Source: Thermodesulfovibrionales bacterium | Lineage (GTDB): Bacteria; Nitrospirota; Thermodesulfovibrionia; Thermodesulfovibrionales; Dissulfurispiraceae | Reading direction: 5' to 3' | DNA: 64,000 nt | Assembly: GCA_046350935.1 (NCBI GenBank) | Contig: JAXLZK010000010.1 | Span: 18,569 to 82,568, forward strand | In this document: piece by piece, positions 1 to 36,806 of the stretch | Layout of the letters: each line of letters opens with the position of its first letter | Position numbering within the stretch: the stretch's first letter is position 1 | Notes under the pieces: generated by a model | The model's input: the letters and a program-made list of their open reading frames with translations, nothing else | Databases searched by the model: none | Told to the model about the DNA's origin: nothing | Program-made: the position numbers and the translations under genes

Positions 1-1102
1 CCGCCACTTTCCGGGCGAACCCCGCAGCGGCCTTCCACGGGTAGGCAACGGCGTCCATGAGCTCCGGCGGCGCCGCTTCCATCTTTTTGCCCCTCCCCCT
101 CACTGCGGCGACCGCTCCCCGTACTGCCAGGGAGGCGGTGCTTTTCGGGTTGAGCAGGATGTCGAGGACCTCGATGAGCACCGCGACGGCCAGCCTGCCC
201 CTCCCGAGCCTGCATTCCATCGCTTCCAGAGCCTTTTTGTGGTACTCCCAGAACTGCCTCTCCCTGAAGGAGAGCACGCTCTTCCCCAGGAACCGGTAAT
301 ACTCGTTCAGCTTCGCCTCCCACCGCTTCCCGAACTCCTCGGCCGGGAGGTAGACGGGTCCGTACTTTTTGAGCAGATACAGGTAGCCCGGCATATAGGT
401 ATTGAGTCTCCGCGCCAGGGAGGTCATCGCCTCGCTGCCCCTCCGCGTATACGAAAGCACCTGGTGCACATACCCGAAGTCGGAATCCTCCAGGACCTCG
501 AAGCAGACTTCCGTATCCGCATGGAAGTTGCTCTCGTTGTAGAATCTTTCCCGCATCCTGATGAGGGAGGAGCGCAGGAGGAGCGTGGTGGGAGACCCGA
601 ACACGTAGAGCTTTTCCGTGAGAGTGCGCACGCAGATCTCTCTTCCCGGCACCACCGTGCTGGGATAGGGCAGCCCGTCGCAGTTCACCCGCGTATCGTC
701 GATCCGGTAGGCCCCCACGATCGCCACCGAGGGGTTCTCCTCGGCCACCTGCACCATCTTCATCAGGCACTCGGGAAACAGCCAGTCGTCGGCATGCACC
801 ACTTTCACGTACGTGCTCCCGCGGGAGATCTGGCGCAGCGCATGGTTCCAGTTCTGCATGATGGGCAGAAAGCTCCCGTTGTGGTGGATGCGGATGCGCC
901 GGTCGCGTTGTGCGTACTCCTCCATGATGCCCGGAGAAAGGTCGGTGCTGCAATTATTGACGATGATGTACTCCCAGTTCCGGTAGGTCTGGGCAAGGAC
1001 GCTCTCGATGCACTCCGCAAGGTGCTTCTCGCAGTTGTACACTGGTGTTACGACGCTGACAAGGGGCTGTCGGCTGCTTTCGATCGTATCGTCCCGGTTC
1101 AT
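1..1102 (-). CDS. Family 2 glycosyltransferase (3' end lies beyond the window start)
   Basis: Absent from the ORF track because it runs off the edge. My reverse-strand translation from ATG 1102 reads MNRDDTIESSRQPLVSVVTPVYNCEKHLAECIESVLAQTYRNWEYIIVNNCSTD..., the classic GT-A/GT2 N-terminus. The frame stays open to position 2. Confidence 0.8.
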   Translation of the reverse strand, partial: MNRDDTIESSRQPLVSVVTPVYNCEKHLAECIESVLAQTYRNWEYIIVNNCSTDLSPGIMEEYAQRDRRIRIHHNGSFLPIMQNWNHALRQISRGSTYVKVVHADDWLFPECLMKMVQVAEENPSVAIVGAYRIDDTRVNCDGLPYPSTVVPGREICVRTLTEKLYVFGSPTTLLLRSSLIRMRERFYNESNFHADTEVCFEVLEDSDFGYVHQVLSYTRRGSEAMTSLARRLNTYMPGYLYLLKKYGPVYLPAEEFGKRWEAKLNEYYRFLGKSVLSFRERQFWEYHKKALEAMECRLGRGRLAVAVLIEVLDILLNPKSTASLAVRGAVAAVRGRGKKMEAAPPELMDAVAYPWKAAAGFARKVA

Positions 1103-1173
1103 AGGGGGAGCACCTCGTGCCGTAGGGGTTCCCGGAGCGCGGGGCAGCCCACCCTGCTCCGCCTGCATACCTC

Positions 1174-3033
1174 TTATCTGCCGTCGAGGTATATCCTGCA
1201 CCAGAGCTCGAAGCTGAGGAGCGCGGTGATTTTGGCGCCCGTGTTGCTCATCCGGCTGCCGCCGTTCCTATGCTCCTCCAGCAGCCCGGCCACTGCTCCG
1301 GGGTTCCAGAAGCCCCTTTCCCGCGCCTTCGGCGAGAGCAGGATCGTCTCGGCCCAGGTGCGCAGGTCCCGCTTGAGCCATGTATCGTAGTCCACGTAGA
1401 AGCACTTCTGCCCCGCAGCGAGGAGCCCCCCTGTCAGCCGCGAGAGGAAGCGGCGCCGGCGCAGCCTCTTTTCGTGGCTCCGCATCTGGAGATGGGTGGC
1501 GTCCAGCGGCAGCCCTCCGGTCGTCGTCGCCGGGATCCTCGCCATGGAGGGGGCGGCCTGGAGAAGCACCCGCCGGTAGAGCGAATTCTCCCCCCAGCGC
1601 AGCGAGGGGGGGAGCGTCCCGGCGAAATCGACGACGTCGTTATCGAAGAAGAGGGGCCTGAACTCGAGGGTGTCGGGGAACAGTGCCGCCAGCCGCGCGT
1701 AGAGCCGCCGCTGCTGCTGCCGCATGCCCCAGTAATCGACGCGGTGGGACACGTGGGCGGAGCGGTACTTGCCGAAGTCGGCATGGAAGCGGGCCCTGGC
1801 CAACCCCTTCACCTGCCGGAAGAGGGACGGGGTCACCAACTGCTGCACCTCGTTGTCCGTGGTCACGCTCTTCATATCGTAATAGCGGTCTGCCGTGAAC
1901 CCCTTTCCCCAGAAGCGGCTCCGGGGGTCCTTGTTGAAGTGGCCGAAGATATCCTCCCCCACCGAACCCGTCGTGAGGGCATCCACCTGGAGCGCAACCT
2001 CGTCGTAGATGCTGATCCCGTGGAACTGGTTACAGTTGATGAGGTCCTCCGTGCGCTCGATTCCCGCTGCGGCAAACGTTTTGAGATAGTCGGGCCGTAT
2101 CTCGTGGAAGCTATGGAACACATTGGCTGCCTGCGCCGCCATGCGTGCATACTGCACGTCGGGGCAGAGCGGGACCCCGAAGGTAAAGGTCTTGAGCGCA
2201 TCCTTCCGGAGCACGCTTAGTACGATCCGGGAGTCCATCCCCCCGCTCAGGAGGAACCCCATCCGCAAAGCGTCCCCCTGTCTTCTCTCGGCCGACTGCC
2301 GGAGCAGGAAAAGCAGCTCCTCCAGGTAGGCGTCGGGGGAAATACCCGTCTCCTCCTCCTCGAAGGCGATATCCCAGTATTTGCGCCACGAAACCCGGTG
2401 TCCCTGGCAGATCACCATGCTTGCGGGTTCCAGCTCATCGATCCCCGCGAACATCGTGTCGTTGGACTGGGGGACGCCCAGGCACAGGAAGTCGGTGAGG
2501 GCGGCATGGTTCACGGTGCGCGGAAAGCCGCTGTCGGCCAGGATGGCTTTCGGGGAGGAGGCCCACAGGTATTTCCCATTCCTCCGCGCGCAGTAGAGGG
2601 GGCGCAGGCCGTACCGGTCGTTGGCGATGATCAGCTTCTCCTTCCGCGCGTCCCATAGCATCAGGGAAAAGCTCCCGTTCAGCGCGCGGACAAAATCGTC
2701 CCCCTTTTCCTCATACAGGTGCGCGGTCAGCTCCGCGGGGCTGTCTTCCGAAAAGCGGTGCCCCTCCCGCTCGAGCGCCCTTCTCACCGCCCCGGCCCCG
2801 AAAAGCTCGCCGTGGAACAGGACGCAGACGGTCTTTTCCTCGTTCCACGCCGGTTGGGGCGGGCGGTTGATCAGCGCCGGGCGGCAGCGCCCCATGCTGA
2901 AGCCGGGCCCGCTGAACCACTCCACCGGCCCCTCGCGGTCGCTCCTCTTCAGGTGGGCGCACATATGCACCACGGCGGGCTCGCTCTCCTCCCGCCTGCA
3001 CTCCGGGTCGTAGAGGGCCGCTAGTCCCGCCAT
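1174..3033 (-). CDS. Asparagine synthase-family amidotransferase (exosortase/EPS-locus type) with a degenerate glutaminase N-terminus
   Basis: Intact 619-aa ORF. It has the PP-loop FLLSGGMDSRIVLS and an AsnB-like glutaminase-domain fold (..VLFHGELFG..LNGSFSLMLWD..NDRYGLRPLY). The N-terminus is MAGLAALY instead of the canonical MCGI. Confidence 0.85.
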   Translation of the reverse strand: MAGLAALYDPECRREESEPAVVHMCAHLKRSDREGPVEWFSGPGFSMGRCRPALINRPPQPAWNEEKTVCVLFHGELFGAGAVRRALEREGHRFSEDSPAELTAHLYEEKGDDFVRALNGSFSLMLWDARKEKLIIANDRYGLRPLYCARRNGKYLWASSPKAILADSGFPRTVNHAALTDFLCLGVPQSNDTMFAGIDELEPASMVICQGHRVSWRKYWDIAFEEEETGISPDAYLEELLFLLRQSAERRQGDALRMGFLLSGGMDSRIVLSVLRKDALKTFTFGVPLCPDVQYARMAAQAANVFHSFHEIRPDYLKTFAAAGIERTEDLINCNQFHGISIYDEVALQVDALTTGSVGEDIFGHFNKDPRSRFWGKGFTADRYYDMKSVTTDNEVQQLVTPSLFRQVKGLARARFHADFGKYRSAHVSHRVDYWGMRQQQRRLYARLAALFPDTLEFRPLFFDNDVVDFAGTLPPSLRWGENSLYRRVLLQAAPSMARIPATTTGGLPLDATHLQMRSHEKRLRRRRFLSRLTGGLLAAGQKCFYVDYDTWLKRDLRTWAETILLSPKARERGFWNPGAVAGLLEEHRNGGSRMSNTGAKITALLSFELWCRIYLDGR

Positions 3034-3124
3034 GCCGTGCTCCCGTTCCGGGGCGCGCCTTTCTTCACCCGTCGCCCCATTATGCAGCCGTCCTTTCCGC
3101 CGTCTCCCGCACCGGCTGCCCGCC

Positions 3125-4387
3125 CTATCCGCTCAGCATGCCGGAGAACCGGGCAAAGGCGTCCTGCCGCCTCCGGTCGATCCCCCGCAGTCCTCGGTAG
3201 TAGAGATCGTTCACCAGCCTGTCCAGGACGAGGCTCCGCCCCTTCCGCCGCAGCCGCCGCAGCGCGCTTTCCGCTTTCGCTCCCGAAGGGGGGGAAGAGC
3301 ACGCCCTGTTCATCCTTTCGAAGTTCCTCCACGCCACGTCCCGCGCAAGCTCCAGGGGAGGGATCTCCAGTTTTTCAGACACTTTCAGCAAACGCGCCAC
3401 CTTTTCCGCAAAGATCCCCTCCACGGTCCGCCGTATCTCGGCGTGGCCGAACCCGAGGGAAGACATGCGGGAGCTGAGGACGGCGCCGCAGTTCGCGACG
3501 AAGTCGGGCAGGCAGAACACTCCCCGGCTGAGGAGTATCTTTTCGGCCTCTGGAGTCAGGGGTGCGTTGGCGGCGGGCACGATCATCCGCGCTGCGACGC
3601 TCCCCGCGTTTTCCGCATCGACTGACCAGGTTCGCGCGCACGGCACGAGGATCTCCACGGGGAGGCCCAGCAGGTCCCTCTGCGCGATTCGTTCGGCGTT
3701 GAGATAGTGGAGCACCAGTCCGCTCCCGTACGCTTTCCGCAGGAAGCACAGCAGCCTCACGTCCAGCCCCGCAGGGTTGTGTAGCGCCCCGTCCGCAGTG
3801 GATACGGCGACGAGCTTCACCCCGGCCTGCTCGAGCATCAGGGCGAGCTCCGCCCCCACTTTACCGAACCCCTCTATCGCCGCCGTCGCTGAGGAGAATC
3901 CCGCGCCCCTGAACAGTACTCCCTGCCGTATCGTCTCGAAGACGGTCAGGGCCGTGTACCCGACGCCCTCCCCGCCGGAGGCATGGAGGGGGTTGCCGAG
4001 GGCTTCCTGCATAGCGTTGATATCGTCCGGTGTCGTTCCCATGTCCTCGCCGAAGAAATAGACATGCTTCTTTACCAGAATGCCCAGGTTCCGGCCGAAC
4101 GCCGCCATGACGTCCTTCCGGCGCTGCTGAACAAGGGAGTCCGCGACAGTGATGCCCGCCTTCGCCCCTCCATGGGGAAAATTGAGAAAGCCGAACTTCA
4201 AGGTCATCACCCGCGCAAGCTGGGCAATCTCCGCCACCGACAGCCCCGGGGCCAGCCGGATGCCCCCGCCGCAGGGGTTCGCCCCCACGGTGCGGTCGAT
4301 CACCAGGTAGCCAAGGGAGCCGAGCTCCCCGTCAATCACCTGACAGACCATCTGGGGGCGAAAATCGTCGATCGTTATCGGTTCCAT
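3125..4387 (-). CDS. Glu/Leu/Phe/Val dehydrogenase-family protein
   Basis: Intact 420-aa ORF. It carries the family signature region GGIRLAPGLSVAEIAQLARVMTLKFGFLNFPHGGAKAGI, including the catalytic Lys context. A Rossmann segment GFGKVGAELA follows. Confidence 0.8.
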   Translation of the reverse strand: MEPITIDDFRPQMVCQVIDGELGSLGYLVIDRTVGANPCGGGIRLAPGLSVAEIAQLARVMTLKFGFLNFPHGGAKAGITVADSLVQQRRKDVMAAFGRNLGILVKKHVYFFGEDMGTTPDDINAMQEALGNPLHASGGEGVGYTALTVFETIRQGVLFRGAGFSSATAAIEGFGKVGAELALMLEQAGVKLVAVSTADGALHNPAGLDVRLLCFLRKAYGSGLVLHYLNAERIAQRDLLGLPVEILVPCARTWSVDAENAGSVAARMIVPAANAPLTPEAEKILLSRGVFCLPDFVANCGAVLSSRMSSLGFGHAEIRRTVEGIFAEKVARLLKVSEKLEIPPLELARDVAWRNFERMNRACSSPPSGAKAESALRRLRRKGRSLVLDRLVNDLYYRGLRGIDRRRQDAFARFSGMLSG

Positions 4388-4414
4388 ACTGTCTCTCCCT
4401 GTTTCTGTCGGTCG

Positions 4415-5590
4415 TTACGGCGCGAGGAAGGGGATGGTATTCCTGAGCTTCCGCGCGGTCTTCCTGAGCTTCAGGCGGAGCTGATTCCGCACCAGGCAGA
4501 CCTGCAGCGCCCGCACCCACGAGGCCGTGAGGGAGCGCCGCTTCGCATAGGTGAGGACCCGCTGGAGCTCCGCTATTTTCAAAGCATCGAGCCCCCTGAG
4601 CCCCGCGATCTGGCTGTCGCTGGCATCGTGCTCGAAGCAGCCGGGGAGGGCCAGGCCGAGCACCCGGAAATTCAGGATCGTCCGGATGCATTTCTCGCAC
4701 ACATTGCAGTTCCTGTCCTCCTCGTCCTCCTTACCGATCATGCAGACGCGGAGATGCTGCAGCGCCTCTTTCCACTCCGCGATCACCCCGACCTTCTCGA
4801 CCCGCGAGAAGGAGGCCCCGTCATGAATGATCCGGAACGAGTCGCCCGACAGCATCCAGTCCGTCACCGGGTTGGAGCCCCAGGGCAGCACCAGGCCGTT
4901 GTACGGCTCGGTGCTCGGGATAATGCCCGCTGCAAAGCCGCGCTGCAGGAGGGACAGGCACGAGGCGGGCGCTGCGCCGTGCATGTCCCACCAGGGCTCT
5001 CCCAGATCTCTCAGGTTGGTGGCCATGGAAATAAACTCAATCCCCAGGCTCTTCACCATGCCCTCCGCACGCTCGGCGGCGCGGTGAAACGCCCCGGCGC
5101 TCTCCAGGGGAATATCGAAGCCGTGGATCATCAGCCCCGCCTCGAGGTCCAGGTTCTGCCTTCCGCAGAGGCCGTTGCGGTAGCGGTAGGCGGTAAACGA
5201 TGAATCGACACCCCCTGAGAAGAGGGTGACGGCGCTGCCCGGCCCCCCGGCGCAGGGATGCTCCCTCTCCGCATCGGCCGTGATCTCCACCTTCACGTAC
5301 CGTTCCGGACGCCAGCACGCCCAGGCGGCCTGGAACTCGTCGAGGTTCCGCAGAAGGGAAGGCGATACTTCTCCGTGCATATGCAGATCGGTGGGGATGC
5401 GCATGGCGGTGAAAAGCATCACCAGCACATAGGGGTCGCCGCTCGCGGTGATAAGGCCGCCGTACCGCTCGGGCACCCGGTACCAGATGCGGACGCGGTC
5501 ATGCTGCGGACCCTCCACGACAACGCCCGCGGTGACCGCACCGCCGCTTCTCACCGGCTCTTCAGGCCACAAATGGGTCTTCCCTGTCAT
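4415..5590 (-). CDS. PP-loop (adenine-nucleotide alpha-hydrolase superfamily) protein, function unknown
   Basis: Intact 391-aa ORF with the SGGxDS motif (VTLFSGGVDSSFTAY) and a C-terminal Cys cluster (NCNVCEKCIRT). It is tightly packed between neighbouring genes, with gaps of 7 and 27 nt. Confidence 0.55.
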   Translation of the reverse strand: MTGKTHLWPEEPVRSGGAVTAGVVVEGPQHDRVRIWYRVPERYGGLITASGDPYVLVMLFTAMRIPTDLHMHGEVSPSLLRNLDEFQAAWACWRPERYVKVEITADAEREHPCAGGPGSAVTLFSGGVDSSFTAYRYRNGLCGRQNLDLEAGLMIHGFDIPLESAGAFHRAAERAEGMVKSLGIEFISMATNLRDLGEPWWDMHGAAPASCLSLLQRGFAAGIIPSTEPYNGLVLPWGSNPVTDWMLSGDSFRIIHDGASFSRVEKVGVIAEWKEALQHLRVCMIGKEDEEDRNCNVCEKCIRTILNFRVLGLALPGCFEHDASDSQIAGLRGLDALKIAELQRVLTYAKRRSLTASWVRALQVCLVRNQLRLKLRKTARKLRNTIPFLAP

Positions 5591-5597
5591 TGCCGCA

Positions 5598-6287
5598 TCA
5601 CCTCGTTCGCTCCGCCATTTCGCTTCTCATTTTTACCACGCGCGCCGGCACGCCGACGGCGACACCCCCTGCGGGAACGCTGCGCGTCACCACTGCGCCA
5701 GCGCCGACAACGGCGCCCTCTCCGATCTCCACGCCGTCGAGCACGACCACGCCGAACCCGATCCAGGCGTCGTCTCCGATGCGGATCCCCCCCTTCGTCG
5801 TCAACTCCTGCCTGCTGATAAGCTCTCCCGGGGCAAAGCCGTGGGCGTAGGAGTAGAAGGCGCAGTTCGGCCCGATCTGCACGCCGCGGCCGATGCGGAT
5901 CGGCCCCTTGTACCCCATGATCTGGCAGCGCGGCTGTATGTAGGTGTCGGCCCCTATGGACACGGAGCCTCCTGCTCCGGTGGCGACGGCGGTATCGCGG
6001 AGGAGATGGACCCGGTCGTCCAGGCTCACCGGGCCGCCGCCCCGCGCCTGGTTGATGACGACCCGGTCGCCGATGAAGACATGGGCGCCCAGATGCAGAT
6101 CGTTGTGGTAGATAATCGAGTTCGGATCGATATACCCCTGCGGGTTCATAAGGGCAAGGGGATACCGCGCGCTGTGCGGCGGCGCACACCATGCGGCAAG
6201 GCGGGTGGAGAAGCGCCCCCAGCGGGACAGCCCCGCCTGCCGCATCCAGAACCGTATCCAGGCCGACCGTAAACGGGTGCGCGGCAT
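5598..6287 (-). CDS. Hexapeptide-repeat (left-handed beta-helix) acyltransferase
   Basis: Contains imperfect hexapeptide repeats: IGDRVVIN..VSIGADTYIQ..IRIGRGVQIGPNCAF..IRIGDDAWIGFGVVVLDGVEIGEGAVVGAGAVV. The start codon is uncertain and an internal Met is possible. Confidence 0.8.
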   Translation of the reverse strand: MPRTRLRSAWIRFWMRQAGLSRWGRFSTRLAAWCAPPHSARYPLALMNPQGYIDPNSIIYHNDLHLGAHVFIGDRVVINQARGGGPVSLDDRVHLLRDTAVATGAGGSVSIGADTYIQPRCQIMGYKGPIRIGRGVQIGPNCAFYSYAHGFAPGELISRQELTTKGGIRIGDDAWIGFGVVVLDGVEIGEGAVVGAGAVVTRSVPAGGVAVGVPARVVKMRSEMAERTR

Positions 6288-6294
6288 AAAAGCC

Positions 6295-7896
6295 CTACAA
6301 GAGCAGATCGGGTAGGCTCTCCAGCAGGAGGTTTCCCATCAGCAGGCAGTTCGTCCGCCCCAGGACGGACTTCAGGAAGCCGTGGAGGCGGGCCTTTACC
6401 AGCACGCGCACCAGCAGCGCTCTGAGCGGACCGTTCCCGCCCCGCGGGTTGATGGGCTCCTGCAGCAGCTCGGGCCAGAAGCGCTCGATGAGCCTTTCCT
6501 GCAGGGCGTACTCGGGGGGCCTCCTGTATTGTTCGTCCACCGAGAGCATGCCGGCCAGGAGCGCACGGCAGTTATAGGGAACGAAGACCTCCTGCACGAT
6601 GTCCCACTCCAGCTGGCTCATCGCCTGCCAGTTCCCCTCCCTGTTCTCCCACTTGAAAAGGTCCAGAAGAGTGGGGGTACGCCATTTCTTCGCCCCCCCG
6701 AGCCATTTTTCGAACGCCCGCCGGGCGAAGGCGCTGTCTCCCATCCCTGTCAGTTCGGCGAGCGTGGCGTCCGTGACCTCTTCACCCCGCCTCTCCGGAG
6801 GCAGCATATACGTGTAGATGCTTTTTGCGATCCCCGCGGCGTTCCCCTTGACGCACACCTTCTCCTGGGGGTAGCTGCGGAAGAGCCCCTGGGCAATGGC
6901 GCCGTAGGCCTCCCGCGCCGTTGTCACGTTCCTCCGGTAGATGCTCCCGAACTCTTCGTCCATCGAGGGGGGACACCGGATCACCGTGTGTTTCAATCCC
7001 AGCCTGCGCAGGAGCGATGACGGGACCCTGATGTCCGGGCTGCTCTTCTTCAGGTCCCAGTACATCAGGGTGAAGCAGTAGACCTTCCTGCTCGCCTCCT
7101 TCAGGGACGCCAGCAGGAGCCGCGTGTCGCGCCCCGCTGTCAGGGACAGGGCGAGCTCGAAACGGTGTGACGCTCCTTTGACAAGCCCGGAAAGGAGCTC
7201 TCCCGTCGCATGGACCGCCTCCTCGAGAGAGAGGCGTGCAGTGTCCCCCGCGGGCCAGAACCTGCCGACGGCTCCGGTCTTCAGATCGAGGAAGTGGTTC
7301 GGGAGCAGGTGGAGGACTTCCCGGTAAAGGGAGCTGTCCCCGGGCCACCAATACTCCTTTTCCCGCTCCGAAAAGGAGCGGATGAACTCGAGCGCCTTCC
7401 TGTCCGGCTCCAGCGAGAGGAGATCGGCGATCAGCCCCGGCTGGGAAGCGCACCACAGCCCGCCCGCGAGGCGCGCATCCGAATAGAAGACCTGCCTGAA
7501 CCCCACGGCATCGTTGAACAGGCGCATCTCTCTGCCGTCGTCCACCAGGAGGACCCACCTGCCCCCGAGTTCATAGGTGTGCGGGAAGAAGGCGTCCGCG
7601 GTATCGAGGCGCTCCAGGAGCCCCTGCACCACCTCCCCGTCGGTATGGAGCGGGTTCCGCGGGTCTATGAGATACCCGAGCAGGGTAACGGACTTCCCGT
7701 GCCGCTCCGCCCGGTATACCGGGAGGTCGGGATGCGCGGCAAGATGGAGCCCCTCGCGCAGGCGCAACCGCCTCCATGAAGGGAAGCCTTCCGGCAGGCG
7801 GGGGCCGAGGAGGAACTGGCGGCGAAAGAGCAGGCGCTCCCTGCCCTCTTCAGTCAGGACCCTTCCTGCGGACATCATTCCGCCGCCCGTCTGCAT
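6295..7896 (-). CDS. Hypothetical protein, distantly asparagine-synthase-like (degenerate motifs)
   Basis: Intact 533-aa ORF. The segment ALSLTAGRDTRLLLASL sits where AsnB-type enzymes carry SGGxDS. No N-terminal Cys nucleophile is present. It lies within the operon. Confidence 0.45.
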   Translation of the reverse strand: MQTGGGMMSAGRVLTEEGRERLLFRRQFLLGPRLPEGFPSWRRLRLREGLHLAAHPDLPVYRAERHGKSVTLLGYLIDPRNPLHTDGEVVQGLLERLDTADAFFPHTYELGGRWVLLVDDGREMRLFNDAVGFRQVFYSDARLAGGLWCASQPGLIADLLSLEPDRKALEFIRSFSEREKEYWWPGDSSLYREVLHLLPNHFLDLKTGAVGRFWPAGDTARLSLEEAVHATGELLSGLVKGASHRFELALSLTAGRDTRLLLASLKEASRKVYCFTLMYWDLKKSSPDIRVPSSLLRRLGLKHTVIRCPPSMDEEFGSIYRRNVTTAREAYGAIAQGLFRSYPQEKVCVKGNAAGIAKSIYTYMLPPERRGEEVTDATLAELTGMGDSAFARRAFEKWLGGAKKWRTPTLLDLFKWENREGNWQAMSQLEWDIVQEVFVPYNCRALLAGMLSVDEQYRRPPEYALQERLIERFWPELLQEPINPRGGNGPLRALLVRVLVKARLHGFLKSVLGRTNCLLMGNLLLESLPDLLL

Positions 7897-7925
7897 GCGT
7901 GCGCTTTCCGCATGTCTGCCATCGT

Positions 7926-10032: not shown

Positions 10033-10055
10033 CTTTCCCCTCCACGGTGCAGGCG

Positions 10056-15749: not shown

Positions 15750-15750
15750 G

Positions 15751-24589: not shown

Positions 24590-24609
24590 CGGTGCCCTGT
24601 CCCTTTTCC

Positions 24610-26698: not shown

Positions 26699-28248
26699 CT
26701 AGAAGATGCTCTTCAGGTGCCCCGGCAGGCTGACGACGGCGCTGATGAAGTCGTCCACGTAGGAGACGCCCAGCAGCTCCAGGGTGAACACCGCGAGGAT
26801 GCCCGCCATATACGCCCCCGCAAACGTGTAGAGCCGTTTGTCCTTCTTCCGCTGCTCCGCGGTTTCTTCGGGGTTCTGGATGCTCGGGATGACGGCAATC
26901 ACCGGGACCCCGAAGGATTTGAGGAGTCGACCGTTTTCACCGACCTGTCCACGGAGTCGAGCAGGACGACGAGGCCGAAGCCCCCCGCCAGCCCGGCAAG
27001 GATGCCGAACAGCATGATCTTCACCCTGTCGGGGCTCACCGGCTTCATCGGCAGCACCGCGGGGTCCACGATCCGGAAGGTGGAGGCCTTGTCCTGCACC
27101 TCCATCTGCTTCGACACCTCCGCCTGGCCGAGGCGGGCCACGAGCTCCTCATAGATGTTCTTCGTGGTAGCCCGCGCCATCTCGAGGTCGGTAAGGCTCT
27201 TCTTTTCGGCAGGCATGCTCCGCAGATAGGTCTTCTTCGATTCCATGAGCCTCCTGAGCTGTTCGTCCTTTGCCGTAAGGGCCGCCAGCTCGAGGTCTGC
27301 CCTCGTCATCTCCTCCCGCAACTGCTGGAACACCGGGTTCAGCAGCGCCACTTCGCCGTCGGCTGCGCCCGCATCGCTTGCCAACGGGGCCTGCCCGCTC
27401 GCCATCTGGCCCTTCAGGGTCTCTATTTCCGTCCTGACCCTGATCACTTCCGGGTAGTTCGGCGTATAGGTCAGCAGCAGGTCGGTCAGCTTCCTCTGGA
27501 GCGTCAGGACCCTCTCGCCGGGGTCGCCCGACCCTTTCCCCATGATGGCGGCGGTGTAGGGCCTCTCCCCTTCATCTGCCTGAGCATCGTCTTTTTCCGC
27601 GCTTCCAGCTCCCGCCTCTTCATCCTGACCCTTTCGAGCCCTTCCTCCGCCGTTTTTATCTCCTCAACCACCCTGCGGTCGTCCAGCGCGACGAAGATGC
27701 CCTTCTCCTTCCGGAACCTGATGATTTCGTCGTCCGCCCTGTCGAGCTTTTCCTTGAAGAATTTAATCTGCTCCGTGAGGAAGCGGCTCGCGCCGTAGGT
27801 CTCCTCCCTCTTCTCCGACACGTTCTCCTCGATGTACCGCCGCACCAGGGCGTTGACGTAGTCCCGGGCGAGCTGGGGTCCGCATTCCGGAGGAGACGAT
27901 GAAGAGGCCGTTCTCGCTCTTCATCGTGATGTCGGTGTTTTTCTGGAAGTCGGAGACGACTTTTTCCACCTCGGACTGCTTCTTCCTGTTCACCGGAAGG
28001 CCGAGGTCGTCCGCCACCTTCAGGAGGAGGTTCCTGCTGCTCATGGTGTAGGACAGCACCTTGAGCTTCTCCTCAAGGGAGGGGGTGACGGCGATGCCCT
28101 TGATGATCGTGTTGATCATGCTCCGCTCGATGAAGACCGTGCATTTCGCCTCATACTCCTTGGGGAGGAAGTAGCTGGTCAGCACCACCAGGGTGATGAG
28201 GAGAGCACGGAAAGGATGAACACGTACTTCCGCTTCGCTATGAGCTGC
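26699..28248 (-). pseudogene. Polysaccharide chain-length determinant (Wzz/PCP family, PEP-CTERM-locus type), at least four frameshifts
   Basis: - The gene starts at ATG 28248 (MQLIAKRKYVFIL..).
- YFLPKEYEAKCTVFIERSMINTIIKG.. is in ORF 27763..28188.
- The coiled-coil middle is in ORFs 27504..27845 and 26899..27543 (..FRIVDPAVLPMKPVSPDRVKIMLFGILAGLAGGFGLVVLLD).
- The terminal TM segment is in ORF 26699..26902. Confidence 0.7.
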
Positions 28249-28289
28249 ATATACCTTTGAGGTCCACTCCCGACGGTTCCATGCCCCTC

Positions 28290-29087
28290 CTAAAAGATCC
28301 CTTCCTTGACCACGATGTAATCACCGGGCTGAAGCTTCAGGTTCTCGCTCAGCTTTCCGTCCTGGAGCAGGTCCTTCACCTTCACCGTCCGGGCGACCTT
28401 CTGTCCGTCCTTCTGCGTGAAGAGGACGACGTCGTTCTGCTTGGCGAATTCGGAGAACCACCCGGCTGCCAGGATCGCGTCCATTATGGTGATCCCGTCC
28501 CTGTATTCGATGAACTTTGGGCTGTTTACCGCGCCGGCGACATAGACGTTCCGGGAGTCCAGCTCGGGGATGAAGAGGACGTCGCTCGATTCGATCACCA
28601 TATCCTCGGAGACGTCGCCCTCGATAAAGAGCCGGTAGAGGTCCTCCTTCACCTTCTTGCCGCTCCGGAGCACGTACGCCCGGCGCAGGTCGGCGAGCCG
28701 CACCTCCCCGATCTGGCAGAGAAGCTGCAGCAGCGTAGTCCTGCGGTTGAGCTCGTAGACGCCGGGCTTTACCCTCCGCCGAAAACGTACACCTTGCTGT
28801 TGGTAATGCCTTCCACGATCACCGTCACCACAGGGTTACGCACCAGGTCCTTCAGCTTGGCGGTGAGCTGCTTCTGCAGCTCCTGGGGCCAGGCCGCTCG
28901 CGGGCACTTCCCCCAGCGCGGGGATCGTGATCTTCCCGTCCGGCCTCACCTTGACCGAAAGCGAGAGGTCCTTCACCCCCCAGACGGAGATAAAGAGCGT
29001 GTCGCCGTCCCCTATCACGTACTCTCCCGCAAAAGCGGCGGCGGGTGCCAGGAGTCCCAGGAGCAAAAGAATCGCGAGTGCTTTCAT
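28290..29087 (-). pseudogene. Polysaccharide export protein (Wza/Poly_export + SLBB), at least two frameshifts
   Basis: - [61 protein letters not shown] starts at ATG 29087.
- The middle part lies in another frame.
- The C-terminal 137 aa are in ORF 28290..28703 (..VLFIPELDSRNVYVAGAVNSP..LQPGDYIVVKEGIF).
- The ATGA overlap at 29084-29087 couples it to the upstream gene. Confidence 0.75.
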
Positions 29088-30463
29088 ACGTCCTCCTCTA
29101 TCTCCCCCCGTTTGAGCAGGACCACCTTTACCGTCTCCAGGATGATCAGGAGGTCGAGGAAGAGAGAGATGTTTTTGATGTAAAAAAGATCGTAGCGGAG
29201 CTTTTCGATCGTATCCTCCACCGATGCCCCGTAGGGATACTTGATCTGCGCCCACCCGGTGATGCCCGGTTTTACCGTATGCCTCTCCGAATAGTAGGGG
29301 ATGACCCTCTTCAACTTTTCCACGAACTCGGGCCTCTCGGGCCGCGGCCCCACAAAGGACATATCCCCCTGAGCACGTTGTAGAGCTGCGGCAGCTCATC
29401 GAAGCGGTATTTCCGCATGAACCTGCCCACCGCCGTCACGCGCGGGTCGTCCTTCTTCGCCCAGACCGCGCCCGTTCCGCTCTCGGCGTCCCGGCGCATC
29501 GTCCTGAACTTGTACAGGACGAAGTTCCTCTCCCCTGCCCCACCCTGAGCTGACGGAACAGCACCGGCGAGGAAGGGGACTCCATCTTGATGATCAGGGC
29601 GGCGAGCGGGATCACCGGAAGCGCCAGGGTGAGTCCGGCAAGCGCCAGGGGGATGTCGAACGCTCTTTATAGAGCCGCTTGAAGGCGGTCAGCCGGAACC
29701 CGTCCGAAAAGATGAACCAACTGGGGGTTATGTTCTCGATCAGCAGCTTCCCGGTTATCTGCTCGTAGAAGGAGGGTGCGTCCACCACGTCGATGCCGCT
29801 CAGCTTGCAGGCAAGCACATCGCGCAGGGGGAAGACGCCCCGCCTCTCGGACAGCGAGATGACGATTTTATGAGCCTTTTCCTTCTTTGCGGTCTCGATG
29901 AGCCCCCCTCCCGTCTCCCACCACCGTATGGGGAGGCACGAACAGCGGCTCGCGGGGGCAGTTGACGTACCCGGCGAGCACGTAATGGTGGTTCGTCGTC
30001 GCCAGGACTCCCCGATCTGTTTCGCCAAGGGGCCGGTGCCGAGGATGATGACCCTCCGCACAAACCCGGTGAGGGAGAGGAACGCCTTGTGCCCCGCGTG
30101 CCAGAGGGGAAGGAGGAGGCCGGACAGCGCAAGGGATGCGGCGAGCATTCCCCTGTCGAACCGGAAAAAAGGCATAAGGTAATAGAATGAGGAGAGAATG
30201 AAGACGGAAAGCACCAGCGAGATGAAGACCCTGATGAAGATCTCCTTCCGGGTGGTGTTCCCCTCCTGGCTGTACAGCCCGACGAAAAAGAGCGAAAAAA
30301 GGACGACCAGCACGAAGAAGGAAACCCGCGCCGCATTGGATGCCAGCAGGCTCCCCGCATTCGCCGGTTTCCCGGCGGACAGGTACAGCACCACGGAGGC
30401 GGATGCCGCCGAAAGAAAGGCGTCCCCCGAAAGGAGCATCGCGATGAGGAGCCGCACGCTCAT
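29084..30463 (-). pseudogene. Undecaprenyl-phosphate sugar phosphotransferase (bacterial sugar transferase, EpsB/WbaP-like priming enzyme), at least three frameshifts
   Basis: - The N-terminal TM region and CoA-binding-like linker are in ORF 29612..30463.
- ..[34 protein letters not shown] is in ORF 29311..29499.
- [60 protein letters not shown] is in ORF 29084..29362. Confidence 0.8.
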
Positions 30464-33381
30464 CTGCCTCCCCTCAGCTCCGCAAGAAGCACTCTCGCGG
30501 CGCCGGCTTCGGGAAAGTCGCCGGTGCGCACGGCCCTGCTGAGGAGCTCGACGGCCCTGCCCTTGTCGCCCCGCTCCTTCAGGGCAAGGGCCGCATGATA
30601 CTGCACCGTAGGATTGCCCGGGAGGAGGGAGGCGGCCTTTTCGAGCATTTTCGACGCTTCCTCCGTCCTGCCCTTCTTGAGAAGGAGGTATCCCAGGGTA
30701 TCCATTACTTCGGCGTTCCCCGGTGCGATCCGGTATGCCTTCGACGCGAGCGCCAGCGCCTCCTCACTGCTGCCGTGCCCTTCCGCGTACAGGAAAGCGA
30801 GGTTGTTCAGCGCCGGGACATGATCCCCGGACTTCCCGAGGAGCTGGCGGTATTTGGCGACCGCCTCCTTCTTGTTCCCCATGAGGTCGTATACGGTCCC
30901 CATCCCGAACAGGACCGCCACATTCCCCGCATCACGCTTCAGCAGGGACTCGTAGGCGCCGAGGGCAAGGGCGTACTCCCCTTTTCTCGTATAGAGCAAC
31001 GCGAGGGAAGTCCTCACCGCCGCGTCGTCCCCGCTCATCGTGAGCGCCTCTTTCAGGACGCCGATCGCCTTATCCAGATCGTTGCCGCTCTCGAGGACGG
31101 AGGCAAGGACCCGGTAGCCGTAAGGAGAACCGGGCTTCTGCCTGATGAGGGCCGACGCCGTTTCCTCGGCTTTCCGCCGGTCCCCCATCAGCAGGTGCAG
31201 ACGCGCTGCTTCCGCGGCGAGGTCGTCCCTTCCCGGCTGTCTCTGCAGCCTGTCTTCGACTTTCTTCAAGGCCGTCTTGTACTCTCCCGCCTCGATGCAG
31301 GCGTTCACGATCAGGGGAAGGGCCCTGTCGGGATCGTAGGCCTCGATTTTTCCGAATGCGGACAGGGCGTCCCGGTATCTCTTCTCTCCCAGGCGGATCT
31401 TTCCCTTGAGCTCCAGCGCCTCGCTGCTGCGCGGGTCGGCCTGTATCGCTTCGTCCAGCGTCTCGAGCGCCCTGCCGGTGTCCTTTTTCCTGAGATAATA
31501 AGAGGCAAGGGCAAGGACCCCCTGCGCCTGCCTCGACTCGTTCGCCTTCTTGTATACGGCGAGGGCCTCCTGCTCCTTCCCCTTTGCCTCAAGCAGCGCC
31601 GCACTCCCCAGGAGGGCGGCGAGGTTCCCGGGAGAGCGGCGCAGCACCGCCCGGTATTCATCGAGCGCGCTTTCGGAATCGCCTTTTGCGGCGTGATACG
31701 CCGCGATGTTGAAATAAGGGGTGAGATAGTCGGGGTCCGCCTCCTTCGCCTTCCGGAGCTGCCGGAGAGCGTCCGCAGACCTGCCCGCCGCCATGAGGGC
31801 GGCGGCCATGTTGTTATACAGCACCGCGTCCGCCTTGCCGCCCCTGAGCCCTTCGCGCAGGGTCTTCTCCGCCTTCCCGTACTCCTTCGTCTTCAGATAA
31901 TACGAGGCCAGGACCAGGCGCGTATTCAGCACGTCGGGAGTGATGCGCACGGCAGTGCTCAGCTCTGTTTCCGCCTCGGTGAGCCTGCCCCTGTTGAGGT
32001 GGTACAGGCCTTTCTTGATGTGGATTTCCACCAGTTTCGGGTCGAGGGCCGCCGCCTTGTCCAGCTCCGCCATGCCCTCGTCGTAGAGCCCCTTTGCCAT
32101 ATAGGCGCTGCCGAGGATATTGCGGGCGAGGGCGTTGTCCCTGCCGTCCCCGAGCGCCTTTTTCGCCTCGGTGATGGCGTCGTCCGTCCGCTTCTGCTGC
32201 AGGAGCACCAGGGCGACGAGTATCCGGGCCTGGGTAAAGGAGGGGGTGAGGTCGAGGGCCCTCTGCAACTGGCTCAGGGCCTGCTCCGGCTCGTTCCGGT
32301 AGTAGTGGCTGAGCCCCAGGAAATAATATCCGCCGCTGCTGGGAGAGAGGGACAAAGACTTCTGGAGGGCGATGACGGCGTCGTTGAACTGCTTGCGGTA
32401 GAAGAGCGCCATCCCTTTCAGGCTGTATCCCTGCGCGTCGTGCGGGAAGTCCCGGATGAGGGCCTCCGACAGGGCGAGAGCAGGCCCGTGCTGCCCTTTC
32501 CCTATCAGGAGCACGCCCTTTTTGAAAGGAGCATCCACAAGGGAGGGATGCGCCGCAATAATCCTGTCGTACGTCGCCAGCGCCTCGTCGGTCGCATGCT
32601 CGGAGGTCTGGATGCTTGCTAGGAGGAACAGGGCGTCTTTCTGGGCGGGCTCCCTGCGGAGTACGTCCGCGATCTGGCGCTTCGCCCCGTCCTTCTCCCC
32701 CCTCATCAGAAAGACCCGGGCAAGGGCCACGGCCGCGGAGCTCCTGCCGCCGTCCTGCCGGAGGCTCCTTCTCAGAAGCTCCACCGCCTCCGGGAGCTCC
32801 CCTTTCAGGGCGCGTGCCCATCCGGAGATCTCGAGGACCTCCGCCGCGGAGGCGGCGTTTCCGCCGAGCGCGCCGAGCTCGCGCAGCGCCTCGTCAGGCT
32901 TGTTCTTCTGTACATGGATGCGGGCGAGCTCGATGTGCGCCTCCGGGAAGGAGGGGCTCTGCAGCACCACCTTTCCCAGCTCCCTCTCCGCGGCGTCGTT
33001 GTTTCCCGCACGGGCGTACGCACGGGCAAGCTGGAAGCGGGCCTCGAAGAAATTCGGGTCCTCCTCCAGGGCGTTCCTGAGGAGCACGACGGCGCCACGG
33101 GGGTTGTTCTCCTGCAGCATCTGCACTCCCTTCCTGAAGAGCTGCTCCTTGCCCCCGCTCCCTTTTTCTGAACAGCCCGTGCCGAGGAGGAGCAGGAAAA
33201 GGACCGCCGAGGTGAGTGCCGAGAGCGTTCCGGCAGTCCGCTGAAAAACGACTGTAGTGTCATTGCGAGGAGCTTTTTTGCGACGAAGCAATCTCCAACC
33301 GACCGATTTCATCAGAGGCGGGATTGCTTCGCTCCGCTCGCAATGACGGAAGAACGACTTTTTCAGCGCCCTGCTAGACAA
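30460..33381 (-). CDS. prsT: PEP-CTERM system TPR-repeat lipoprotein (PrsT-like)
   Basis: Intact 973-aa ORF made almost entirely of TPR repeats. The lipobox is LLLLGTGCS. Its stop overlaps the next start (ATGA at 30460-30463). The start is ambiguous: TTG 33381 overlaps the upstream stop, and ATG 33312 is the alternative. Both lie in or upstream of a palindromic element. Confidence 0.85.
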   Translation of the reverse strand: MSSRALKKSFFRHCERSEAIPPLMKSVGWRLLRRKKAPRNDTTVVFQRTAGTLSALTSAVLFLLLLGTGCSEKGSGGKEQLFRKGVQMLQENNPRGAVVLLRNALEEDPNFFEARFQLARAYARAGNNDAAERELGKVVLQSPSFPEAHIELARIHVQKNKPDEALRELGALGGNAASAAEVLEISGWARALKGELPEAVELLRRSLRQDGGRSSAAVALARVFLMRGEKDGAKRQIADVLRREPAQKDALFLLASIQTSEHATDEALATYDRIIAAHPSLVDAPFKKGVLLIGKGQHGPALALSEALIRDFPHDAQGYSLKGMALFYRKQFNDAVIALQKSLSLSPSSGGYYFLGLSHYYRNEPEQALSQLQRALDLTPSFTQARILVALVLLQQKRTDDAITEAKKALGDGRDNALARNILGSAYMAKGLYDEGMAELDKAAALDPKLVEIHIKKGLYHLNRGRLTEAETELSTAVRITPDVLNTRLVLASYYLKTKEYGKAEKTLREGLRGGKADAVLYNNMAAALMAAGRSADALRQLRKAKEADPDYLTPYFNIAAYHAAKGDSESALDEYRAVLRRSPGNLAALLGSAALLEAKGKEQEALAVYKKANESRQAQGVLALASYYLRKKDTGRALETLDEAIQADPRSSEALELKGKIRLGEKRYRDALSAFGKIEAYDPDRALPLIVNACIEAGEYKTALKKVEDRLQRQPGRDDLAAEAARLHLLMGDRRKAEETASALIRQKPGSPYGYRVLASVLESGNDLDKAIGVLKEALTMSGDDAAVRTSLALLYTRKGEYALALGAYESLLKRDAGNVAVLFGMGTVYDLMGNKKEAVAKYRQLLGKSGDHVPALNNLAFLYAEGHGSSEEALALASKAYRIAPGNAEVMDTLGYLLLKKGRTEEASKMLEKAASLLPGNPTVQYHAALALKERGDKGRAVELLSRAVRTGDFPEAGAARVLLAELRGGR
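33241..33370. repeat. Imperfect ~130-bp palindromic (MITE/REP-like) element inside the 5' end of prsT
   Basis: - The outer arms are CTGAAAAACGAC..GTCATTGCGAG (33241-33269) and CTCGCAATGAC..GTCGTTCTT..TTTTTCAG (33337-33366, with mismatches).
- The inner arms are GAAGCAATC (33286-33294) and GATTGCTTC (33322-33330).
- On the minus strand it translates as ..FFRHCERSEAIPP..RRKKAPRNDTT.. Confidence 0.6.
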
Positions 33382-33754
33382 TGTTGTATCCCCCCTGGAT
33401 GGTGCTCAGTTCTCCGTCCATCACCTGCCGCACCAGAAGCCGGAACTTGCGGTAGTCGAGCGGCTTGATCATGCAGTAGGAATTGCAGAAGCCTTCGAGT
33501 ATGCTGATAAGGTCTCCGTTAATGTGGTCGGAGAGGATTATGGTGGCGATGTTCTGCCGTTTGATTTCCTCGAAAATGAAAATGCCGTAGGGATAGCTGG
33601 TAATGATCAACCCGAAGTCCCTGTCGTTCAGACGCACGCCGATCCCGTTCGCATCGGTCGCCGCCTCTATACCGTAGCCTTCGAACTCGAGAATTGCCGA
33701 ACAGATGCGGGAAAAGCCCTCCTCATCGACGATGAGTATCTTTTTTTCTCCCAT
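33374..33754 (-). CDS. Stand-alone receiver (REC) domain protein lacking the phospho-acceptor Asp
   Basis: MGEKKILIVDEEGFSRICSAILEFEGYGIEAATDANGIGVRLNDRDFGLIITSYPYG...MIKPLD has a CheY-like fold pattern. The conserved Lys is present (KP). The DxxMP acceptor position reads ITSYP. The start is taken at ATG 33754; the track ORF extends to 33892. Confidence 0.7.
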   Translation of the reverse strand: MGEKKILIVDEEGFSRICSAILEFEGYGIEAATDANGIGVRLNDRDFGLIITSYPYGIFIFEEIKRQNIATIILSDHINGDLISILEGFCNSYCMIKPLDYRKFRLLVRQVMDGELSTIQGGYNIV

Positions 33755-34118
33755 AGACACGGGGAAGAGCAAGATCGATGCCTGCGGGGAGCGGGAAAGC
33801 GCCGTCATGCCGCACGGAGCGGGACAATGCAGGGAAAACAGCGCCTTGGGAAGCAAAAGACAGCGGGCGTCCTGGACAGGCAGCGCCCGCACTCCTCTCT
33901 TTCCGCAGCTCCGCTGCGGAATCGGGGGCTTTGGAGAGCCCTTCTCCGCTCTCTCCTGTTTCCATCGGATACAGCGAGAACAAACCTGTTGGAATATATG
34001 AGCGTAATAATGTATCTTTCGGACACAGCATCCTCCGGAAGCGGCATTTTCCTTCTTATAAGCGCCAAAAGTGTTTCTGAGGGAAACAAGAAGGGGAGGC
34101 GGTGGAAGCGGGGTGCTC

Positions 34119-35468
34119 CTACGGGAGCGGGAGGTCCCGCAGCTTCTTGTAAAAGGCTTTCCGCGAGATCCCGAGCATTCGGGCTGCCTTCGACTTGTTG
34201 CCGTTGCATCTGTTCAGGGTCTCGCGGACCGCGTGGACTTCGAGCTGTTTCAGGGTGCGGAGGGGTACGGAGAGCTCCCGGTGCCTCCGGGTGCGGAACT
34301 CCTCCGGGAGCTCACGGGAGGTTATCATCTCTCCTTTCACCAGGACGACGGCCCTCTCGATCACGTTTTTCAGTTGTCGTATGTTGCCCGGCCACGGGTG
34401 TTCCCTGAAGAGCCGCATCACCTCGTCCGCAATTTTGATTGCCTTCTTCTCCCGGATGCAGAATTCGTTGAGAAACTCCGCCGCCAGCAGCGGGATGTCG
34501 TCCCTCCTCTCCCGGAGAGGGGGGACGTCGATATGCACCACGTTGATGCGATAAAAGAGGTCCTCCCGGAAGGTCCCCTCCCCCACCTCTTTCAGCAGGT
34601 CGCGGTTGGTGGAGCAAATGAGCCTGAAATCGGCCTTTATCTTCCGGTTGCTCCCGAGCCGCTCGATCTCTTTTTCCTGGAGGGCGCGGAGCAGCTTTGC
34701 CTGAAGGGAGAGCTCGAGCTCCCCTATCTCGTCGAGAAACACCGAACCGCCCGCGGCCTCCTCGAACCGCCCGATTCTCCGCGCCACCGCCCCGGTAAAC
34801 GCACCCTTCTCATACCCGAAGAGCTCCGATTCGATCAGCTCCTTGGGGATGGCTGCACAGTTCACCGCGATGAACGGGTTGCTTCCGCGGGTGCTGCTGT
34901 AGTGAAGAGCGCGGGCGATCAGCTCCTTGCCCGTTCCCGTTTCCCCGGTGATCAGGACACTGCTGGAAGAGTCTCGCACCGCCTCGATGGTTTCGATGAT
35001 GCCCAGCATGACGGGCGCGTTGCTGATAATGCGGACGGAAGGGCTTTCCGACGAGAGCTTCCGCCGCAGGTTCTCCAGCTCCCTCTTCAGCCGCCGCTGC
35101 TCCACCGCCCGGGAAAGGATGCTCTTCAGCTTTACGTAGTCGGGGGGCTTGATGAAGTAGTAGAAAGCCCCGTGGGTGATGGTCGTCACCGCGGACTCCA
35201 CGGTGCCGTATGCGGTGAGAAATATCACGGGGATGTCGGGGTGTGTATCGGAGACGTACTGAAAAAACTGCATCCCGTCTCTCCCCGGCATTTTCAGGTC
35301 CGTGATGACCGTATCGATATCCTCGGAGGCGACGACGGAGACGGCTTCGTCCACCTCCCTCGCCTCGAAAACACTGTATCCGCCGTCCGAAAGGATCGCC
35401 GAAAGGACCCTGCGCGCATTGGGGTCGTCGTCGATGATCAGGACACGTCCGTTGCAGCTCTCGTTCAT
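34119..35468 (-). CDS. Sigma-54-dependent response regulator (NtrC family; PrsR-like candidate)
   Basis: - Intact 449-aa ORF.
- The REC domain has [19 protein letters not shown].
- The AAA+ module has [21 protein letters not shown] and the [15 protein letters not shown] loop.
- The C-terminal Fis-type HTH is [22 protein letters not shown]. Confidence 0.9.
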
Positions 35469-35660
35469 TGCCTTCTCCTTGCGGCGCGTCAGGTGCGGCC
35501 TGTCTCGTACGAATGCGCTCTCAGGGCGCGGTCCCGTCCTGCAGGGTGCGGGGATGCGAAGCCGGAGAGGGAAAGGAGCAGACGCCCTTCCCTCCGCGTC
35601 CGCCCTGCCGGGGGTTCCGGAGAAGAGTACGATGCGGGGTGCGAATGTATTCCCTTTGCA

Positions 35661-36806
35661 TTATGGCCGGTAGTCCGCGGGGTGCGTCCTGTCTCTGTCC
35701 TGTGCCGGAAAATACAGACGCACCACCGTACCGGCATCCTTCTTGCTCTTGATTTCCATATGCCCCTTGTAGTACTGGATGATTTCACGGGTGATGAAAA
35801 GTCCGAACCCCCTTCCCTTGTCCCCGGAAAGGCCGGCCTCCCTGTTTTCGGAAATGCCCGGACCCGTATCCGTGATCTCCACGAGGACGAAATCGGTATC
35901 GAAGCGCTTTTCATGCGCTGTCCTGATGGCTAGGCGCCCGCCCGGGCTCATGGCCTCTATGGCGTTGTTGATCACGTTCAGGACCGCCTGCTCGAACTGG
36001 AAGGCCTCGATGGTTACCAGGGGGATGTCCCCGTATTCGTACACCGTCTCGATGTTTCCCGCATAGGCCTGCATGGAGGTGAACACTTCGATCCTCTTCA
36101 ACAGCGAATTGATGTCCGACCCGGTCAGCGCGGCGTCGGGGACGGAGGCGCTGAGGAAGCGCGAGATGAAATTGTCGAGGCGCGATATCTCGTCCTCCAT
36201 GATCCGGGTGAACTCGATAAGGGTCTGCTCGCTGGCGTATTTCTCGCGGAGGTGCACCACTGCTCCCTTGATCGCATTCAAGGGGTTTCTGACGCCGTGG
36301 GCGAGCGTCGAAGCCGTCTTGCCGATATCGATGATCCGCTGCAGGTTCTGGAGCTTGATCGCCATGAGACAGGTGGAGTAGGGAAAGAAGGAGACCATCA
36401 GGCTCCTGACCTTGCCGTGCATGTCGCGCACCGGCTCGACAGAGACGTCGGCATCGATCTGCCCGTGCAGGCAGTTGAAGGAGTACCGCTTGAAGGCCAA
36501 CGCCTTATTCCTCTTTACCGCGGTGGAAAGCGCGTCCCTCTCTTCCAGGACGATGCGCGGGAGCACCTCGAAATACTTTTTCCCCATTGCGGTCAGGGGA
36601 GGTCGTCCTGTCAGCTCGGCAATCCGTTCGTCCCAGACGCTGATACGCAGTCTGTTGTCCGTATAAAAAGTGTATGATTGCCCCGCCCTGCCGCTTTTCT
36701 GAATCGAACACTGTGCCGTAGAGGATACCATCAGTCCGTGCTGGAGCACTTCGCAACCCCGTTTTCGCAGTATTTTTACGCCTGTCCCGCACCGGATGCG
36801 GAGCAC
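35661..36806 (-). CDS. Cytoplasmic PAS-domain sensor histidine kinase (NtrB-like)
   Basis: The H-box is TLAHGVRNPLNAIKG. The ATP-binding domain has NVINNAIEAM, ITDTGPGI and GRGFGLFITREII. No TM segments are evident. The start is uncertain: 36806, or ATG 36731 (MVSSTAQ). Confidence 0.8.
   Translation of the reverse strand: MLRIRCGTGVKILRKRGCEVLQHGLMVSSTAQCSIQKSGRAGQSYTFYTDNRLRISVWDERIAELTGRPPLTAMGKKYFEVLPRIVLEERDALSTAVKRNKALAFKRYSFNCLHGQIDADVSVEPVRDMHGKVRSLMVSFFPYSTCLMAIKLQNLQRIIDIGKTASTLAHGVRNPLNAIKGAVVHLREKYASEQTLIEFTRIMEDEISRLDNFISRFLSASVPDAALTGSDINSLLKRIEVFTSMQAYAGNIETVYEYGDIPLVTIEAFQFEQAVLNVINNAIEAMSPGGRLAIRTAHEKRFDTDFVLVEITDTGPGISENREAGLSGDKGRGFGLFITREIIQYYKGHMEIKSKKDAGTVVRLYFPAQDRDRTHPADYRP

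Follow-up and report, generated by a model that had tools for sequence, protein, structure and literature searches.

The proximal 37 kb of a probable XrtA/PEP-CTERM exopolysaccharide locus in a Nitrospirales-type bacterium

We analysed a stretch of 64 kb, called the window in the following, which comprises positions 18569-82568 of contig C10 in the draft genome G000 (3.37 Mb, 55 contigs) of a Nitrospirales-type bacterium. From position 36806 down to base 1 its minus strand carries a co-directional array of exopolysaccharide (EPS) genes, and maps of open reading frames (ORFs) and of third-position G+C show that the array continues into the rest of C10. Very probably we are dealing with an XrtA/PEP-CTERM EPS cluster of the ordinary type, about 67 kb long, with the exosortase XrtA situated about 25 kb off the window and with reading frames that are split by assembly indels. 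The first-pass annotation, made from the sequence of the window, had correctly recognized the co-directional arrangement and its extent, and had proposed a PEP-CTERM/exosortase-type EPS locus which lacks both an exosortase and the membrane kinase PrsK. The type of locus stands for PrsT, the EpsB_2 transferase, the exporter, the chain-length determinant, the tyrosine kinase and the ATPase. It does not stand for the AsnB amidotransferase, the NtrC-like regulator, the histidine kinase and the FemAB-like genes, the only genes for which the specific subfamily models remain below cut-off or only generic families match. The apparent lack of XrtA and PrsK is an artefact of the window edge and of a contig break.

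Specific NCBIfam/TIGRFAM models were scored against their cut-offs (given below as score against cut-off), and Pfam was used for generic families. The NCBIfam models for the XrtA system were TIGR03109, TIGR02914-02917, TIGR03013, TIGR03027, TIGR03007, TIGR03018 and TIGR03015. For comparison we used two genomes of the same genus (G001, G002), two from other families of the same order (G026, G038) and a further one of this order (G077). Positions are those of the window unless a contig is named.

The core genes of the XrtA system

The core genes lie next to each other in the middle of the array:

30460-33381, minus strand: PrsT, TPR-repeat protein of the XrtA/PEP-CTERM system, intact (TIGR02917, 625.9 against 312.2 bits)
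29105-30463, minus strand: EpsB_2-type priming sugar transferase, frameshift-split (one piece 164.7 bits on TIGR03013; G002 orthologue 544.9 against 393)
28293-29027, minus strand: Wza-like polysaccharide export protein of the XrtA system, frameshift-split (pieces 61.1 and 112.1 bits on TIGR03027; G002 pepcterm_export orthologue 225.7 against 180)
26702-28259, minus strand: chain-length determinant of the XrtA system, in at least three frames (pieces 91.6, 104.7 and 194.6 bits on TIGR03007; G002 pepcterm_ChnLen orthologue 480.3 against 278.85)
25785-26669, minus strand: XrtA-associated tyrosine autokinase, in four frames by tblastn (one piece 76.5 bits on TIGR03018; G002 pepcterm_TyrKin orthologue 258.9 against 230.65)
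24613-25774, minus strand: ExeA-like ATPase associated with the XrtA/PEP-CTERM system, frameshift-split (pieces 109 and 279.9 bits on TIGR03015; G002 pepcterm_ATPase orthologue 406.1 against 324.5)

The TPR lipoprotein, described at first as PrsT-like, is a bona fide PrsT. Its closest named relative, found in a search of genome contigs with PrsT, belongs to the metagenome-assembled genome Nitrospirales bacterium SJ299 (82% identity), and PrsT exceeds the cut-off in 13 of the 81 sampled genomes of the order. For the five split genes, every tested piece with any NCBIfam match scored best on the XrtA-specific model. When the scores of the pieces are added up, the chain-length determinant (391) and the ATPase (389) surpass their cut-offs, and the exporter reaches 173 against 180 in these split copies. 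The intact orthologues on contig C21 of G002 pass all five models, in line with the assignment of these genes to the XrtA system.

The exosortase and the junction of two contigs

The 64 kb of the window contain no exosortase, as had been noted before, and none of the unassigned ORFs in its first 14 kb has a profile with multiple transmembrane segments. In the whole genome PF09721 matches only once, on contig C49 (15 kb). There EpsI, PrsK and PrsR come after XrtA on the same strand, and upstream of XrtA we find a GT4 glycosyltransferase, an O-ligase-like gene and WecB:

C49:7060-7944: XrtA (TIGR03109, 212.3 against 208; TIGR02602, 209.8 against 105.55; PF09721, 244 bits)
C49, directly downstream of XrtA: EpsI (TIGR02914, 136.1 against 42.8)
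C49: PrsK (572.2 against 300)
C49: PrsR (671.3 against 502.6)

The end of C49 (14639-14715) and the start of C10 (1-77) match in the same orientation, with 76 identical bases out of 77. In G002, positions 1-44867 of contig C36 are colinear with the window from 9927 to 10, then with C10 from 18502 to 204 and then with C49 from 14620 to 143; contig C282 of G001 also runs across this junction. Because the two ends overlap and both relatives cross the junction, XrtA should lie on the same strand, about 25.3 kb to the left of window base 1, and the array would extend over about 67 kb of one strand, from the PAS kinase to PrsR. In G026 and G038 an exosortase is found on the same contig and strand, 21-24 kb beyond the chain-length and tyrosine kinase genes. 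Both contigs of G000 enter a dispersed repeat of about 400 bp (C10:201-620 and C49:14723-14817), of which there are at least 20 copies in the genome and dozens in G002, and this would explain the contig break. Thus, the exosortase seemed to be absent because the window stops 25 kb short of it and because the assembly breaks at the repeat.

It is very improbable that C49 comes from a different part of the genome, or from a different organism in the bin, and that the locus of the window is truly without exosortase and served in trans. The junction does lie in a multi-copy repeat, C49 is short, and the genes of this system were often scattered in the genomes surveyed by Haft et al. (PMC1569441). 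Yet the overlap, the colinearity of two independent assemblies of the same genus across the junction and the downstream exosortase on the same contig of more distant relatives all speak for the arrangement given above. The slightly higher G+C of C49 (0.621; genome mean 0.59) might be taken as a further point for this rival reading, but the EPS locus of the window itself has the same raised G+C.

C49 carries in addition a second pepcterm_ATPase-like gene (111-2350, plus strand; 275.6 against 324.5) together with a GspB-like partner. This pair is convergent with PrsR and is joined to it across a scaffold gap of 100 N.

PEP-CTERM proteins and their promoters

The genome holds, besides its one exosortase, three genes for PEP-CTERM proteins, one in the window and the others at C7:99922-100884 and C17:14309-14566. 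The gene in the window and its promoter are:

38931-39773, plus strand: PepA-like PEP-CTERM protein (PEP_CTERM, 27.9 against 16; floc_PepA, NF033554, 73.8 against 80)
38747-38762, plus strand: sigma-54 -24/-12 promoter TGGCATGGGGATTGCT, 184 nt upstream of the start codon

This gene had been proposed as a bona fide PEP-CTERM substrate gene, and rightly so. It starts exactly at 38931 behind a strong ribosome-binding site, AAAGGAGGTG, and encodes a protein with a signal peptide and a tail made up of IPEP, a transmembrane segment and RRRK. A TGGCAT-N5-TTGCT motif is present upstream of all three genes, at -184, -115 and -133 from the start codons, and rpoN is found in the genome (446.7 bits). The same sigma-54 motif was described by Haft et al. 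in 2006 (PMC1569441), and pepA of Aquincola is RpoN-dependent (PMC9850573). A search of the three promoters for a shared upstream activator motif (motif 1 of Haft) gave none that is common to all, only pairwise 8-mers, TTTACAGA and ATCGGAAT, each in two of the three. By analogy, XrtA would cleave the PEP-CTERM proteins and their genes would function as a regulon.

Another near-consensus sigma-54 site, TGGCACGTTTGTTGCT, with one mismatch, is located outside the EPS array at 41203-41218 on the minus strand. Between the PAS kinase and the PEP-CTERM gene, and divergent from the array, is an ORF of 499 amino acids (aa) with high third-position G+C (37113-38612, plus strand). Further on, at 52000-60000, the G+C drops to 0.42-0.52, against the genome mean given above; this stretch may be an acquired island.

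The broken reading frames

Between 14.3 and 30.0 kb most genes are split over several frames when compared with G002, with intact genes on either side. More than 110 frame-breaking indels, seen only in this assembly, are spread across this patch. In a three-way alignment of 14.1-23.7 kb we counted 87 such indels in the window alone as opposed to 9 in G001 and G002 together. About 20 more occur at 25.9-30.0 kb, mostly losses of one base beside short runs of G or C, and there both relatives agree with each other. The flanks contain few indels; those of PrsT cancel in frame and the others are in frame or intergenic. Compared with G001, the patch is at least as similar in nucleotide sequence as the flanks are, and 60% of the substitutions of the window lineage fall on codon position 3 (67% and 70% in the relatives). 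Since indels are about ten times as frequent as in the relatives and substitutions show no such excess, an assembly error is indicated. Judged from the sequence, the likeliest explanation is therefore that the split frames are indel errors of this assembly and not gene decay.

We consider it unlikely that the core export arm and the ABC module in this patch are true pseudogenes, the polysaccharide being lost while PrsT, XrtA and the regulators were kept. The tenfold excess of indels is accompanied by a substitution divergence which is equal to or lower than that of the two congeners, most lineage-specific substitutions are still at third positions, many of the clearest indels are the mentioned single-base losses beside short homopolymer runs, and no large deletion was noticed in the alignments to G002. 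For true pseudogenes one can adduce that the indels are confined to a single 16-kb stretch between intact genes and that a partial second EPS cluster on contig C30 could compensate for the loss. The window lineage also shows slightly more substitutions at positions 1 and 2 (88, vs 56 in G001), which could reflect some relaxation of selection.

There is no run of N near the patch on C10. Some further checks were not informative. The density of G/C homopolymers in the patch and in the flanks does not help, and two genome-wide metrics of ORF coverage, applied in search of other error-rich patches, did not discriminate, as shadow ORFs and islands of low G+C swamp the signal in a genome of 59% G+C.

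Together with the substitutions at positions 1 and 2, the following points weigh against an ordinary, complete XrtA locus with assembly errors. XrtA exceeds its cut-off by only 4 bits, and it scores equally on XrtW and XrtD, failing both. Past the 77-base overlap the ends of C49 and C10 diverge within the repeat, and we infer the junction. Finally, three PEP-CTERM proteins is a low number for an XrtA genome.

The regulators at the head of the array

Upstream of PrsT the array begins with regulatory genes:

35661-36806, minus strand: soluble PAS histidine kinase, first gene of the array, generic and AtoS-like (AtoS best, 139 bits; PEP_his_kin, 46 against 300)
34119-35468, minus strand: NtrC-family sigma-54 enhancer-binding response regulator (PEP_resp_reg, 408.1 against 502.6)
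33374-33892, minus strand: small protein between the regulator and PrsT (faint ArcA receiver match, 21.8 bits; 82.5% identical to a G002 ORF in the same position)

The kinase is indeed small and soluble, as had been described, and its PEP_his_kin score led us to reject it as PrsK, the true PrsK being the one on C49. The response regulator had been counted among the specific PEP-CTERM markers; by its score it is not PrsR. Its orthologues, with 61-69% identity, are found directly upstream of PrsT in G026, G038 and G077, whereas paralogues reach only about 40-45%. This extra regulator is thus a conserved part of the version of the locus in this lineage, and perhaps it acts on the sigma-54 promoters of the PEP-CTERM genes.

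In this order of Nitrospirales-type bacteria the XrtA locus would then have a sigma-54 two-component pair at each end, with the PAS kinase and the NtrC-like regulator at the head and PrsK and PrsR at the tail. We offer only tentatively the idea that the PEP-CTERM/EPS regulon could in this way combine cytoplasmic and envelope signals. It is less likely than this that the 16-kb stretch with its many indels is genuine and shows the export arm to have collapsed recently.

The glycan module and the tailoring genes

Downstream of the core genes the array contains an antiterminator, a module for nucleotide sugars and ABC export, and many tailoring genes:

24193-24590, minus strand: UpxY/RfaH-family antiterminator, frameshift-broken (G002 orthologue 121 against 100 on NF033644)
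17389-23840, minus strand: nucleotide-sugar module, mostly frameshift-broken (orthologues on contig C5 of G002)
18729-19304, minus strand: RmlC-like epimerase, intact (173 against 155.75)
14460-16933, minus strand: Wzm permease and Wzt ATPase of an ABC-type glycan exporter, frameshift-broken (G002 Wzm and Wzt orthologues)
12139-14273, minus strand: two tandem FemAB/CelD-like GNAT genes (Acetyltransf_6, PF13480; 85.7 and 91.2 bits)
2-12154, minus strand: tailoring genes, namely a GT2 glycosyltransferase, a Glu/Leu-dehydrogenase-like gene, a PP-loop-like gene, a hexapeptide acetyltransferase, an unassigned gene of 533 aa, a secreted repeat protein, an unassigned gene of 388 aa and a PIG-L-like deacetylase
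1174-3033, minus strand: AsnB-family amidotransferase, generic (TIGR03108, 175.6 against 816.9)

An antiterminator would be in place here, as a cluster of about 67 kb on one strand has to be transcribed processively. The nucleotide-sugar module comprises a glucose-1-phosphate cytidylyltransferase (440 bits on TIGR02623 for the orthologue on contig C5 of G002), an FAD oxidoreductase, an NAD epimerase/dehydratase, unassigned genes, the RmlC-like epimerase and a protein of 737 aa with a C-terminal SDR domain. The Wzt piece of the window covers only profile positions 57-198, and four transmembrane segments are seen in 16037-16933. The earlier statement that two export routes, one of the Wza/Wzc type and one by Wzm/Wzt, occur together is correct.

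The FemAB-like and AsnB genes are a different matter. Neither of the two FemAB-like genes matches pepcterm_femAB (TIGR03019), and the only true member in the genome (368.6 bits) is on contig C30. The AsnB gene stays far below the cut-off of eps_aminotran_1 (TIGR03108), and no copy in the genome surpasses it, the best one scoring 516.6 on contig C13. Both had been listed as specific markers of the system, which they are not. The true pepcterm_femAB sits in the partial second EPS cluster at C30:9000-35000, where an AsnB paralogue that stays below the TIGR03108 cut-off (424.6 bits) is also found, as are DNA matches to the sugar-transferase and antiterminator genes of the window.

Among the tailoring genes, the 533-aa ORF (6295-7896) was considered as a fused XrtA-EpsI protein and rejected, as it has neither a Pfam or NCBIfam match nor transmembrane segments. 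In the secreted protein (8329-10137, minus strand), which is split over several frames, a signal peptide is accompanied by Golvesin-C-like and PKD modules that occur repeatedly; tandem copies of the Golvesin-C-like/PKD module are also present at the start of contig C36 of G002. Left of the window, C10:1-18568 carries about ten further minus-strand genes, with GT2 and GT4 transferases, a second Wzt, an adenylate-forming enzyme and a 2-hydroxyacid dehydrogenase.

Discussion

We suggest that the window contains the proximal 37 kb of a canonical XrtA/PEP-CTERM EPS locus of about 67 kb on one strand. The order of genes would be PAS kinase, NtrC-like regulator, PrsT, EpsB_2, Wza-like exporter, chain-length determinant, tyrosine kinase, ATPase and UpxY antiterminator, then the CDP-sugar/ABC (Wzm/Wzt) glycan module, then many glycosyltransferases and tailoring enzymes, and at the end, off the window, WecB, the O-ligase-like gene, GT4, XrtA, EpsI, PrsK and PrsR. 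Going by the known roles of these families, the polysaccharide would be assembled on a lipid carrier and exported by the Wza/Wzc-type route, possibly by the ABC route too. Sigma-54 and PrsR, and perhaps also the local NtrC-like regulator, would turn on the three PEP-CTERM genes, and XrtA would cut off the C-terminal PEP-CTERM anchor and pass the proteins to the matrix.

The locus adds little to the known biology. It documents for a Nitrospirales-type genome a complete XrtA/PEP-CTERM system, including a sigma-54 regulon and PrsK, PrsR and PrsT, proteins whose first description was from Proteobacteria. The lessons are practical ones. A gene which appears to be absent from a window of 64 kb needs to be looked for in the remainder of the contig and in the neighbouring contigs, and a patch of 16 kb with probable indel errors would mislead pseudogene calls.

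The locus can be compared with three kinds of known systems. With Wza/Wzc-type (Wzx/Wzy-dependent) capsule and EPS loci that have an RfaH/UpxY antiterminator, it shares the outer-membrane exporter, the split chain-length determinant and tyrosine kinase, the priming phosphotransferase and the antiterminator within a long one-strand operon. Here, however, the subfamilies are XrtA-specific, and no Wzx or Wzy was identified at the locus. The PepA/RpoN floc-formation system of Aquincola tertiaricarbonis and Zoogloea resiniphila (PMC9850573, PMC9012009) is similar in that the PEP-CTERM protein of the window is floc_PepA-like and has a sigma-54 promoter, and in that PrsK/PrsR and rpoN are present. 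It differs in that floc_PepA remains below its cut-off of 80 bits, the host belongs to another phylum and the system is known here from its genes.

The closest counterpart is the XrtA (EpsH)/PEP-CTERM system with PrsK, PrsR and PrsT (Haft et al. 2006, PMC1569441). The core proteins pass the specific models or match them best, the PEP-CTERM genes have a sigma-54 promoter upstream and the exosortase is part of a large EPS locus. In the survey of Haft et al., PrsK/R adjoin EpsH in only 3 of 13 genomes and PrsT in 4 of 13 (PMC1569441), so that an array with PrsT and XrtA-PrsK-PrsR at opposite ends stays within the known range. Only three PEP-CTERM substrates were found here, an amidotransferase above the TIGR03108 cut-off is lacking from the genome, and the only TIGR03019 FemAB is on another contig. 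A second pair of a kinase and an NtrC-like regulator stands at the head of the locus, which also has an inserted ABC-type (Wzm/Wzt) glycan module and UpxY antiterminator, and whereas the hosts of PrsK/R/T in that survey were Proteobacteria (PMC1569441), the host of the present locus is of the Nitrospirales type.

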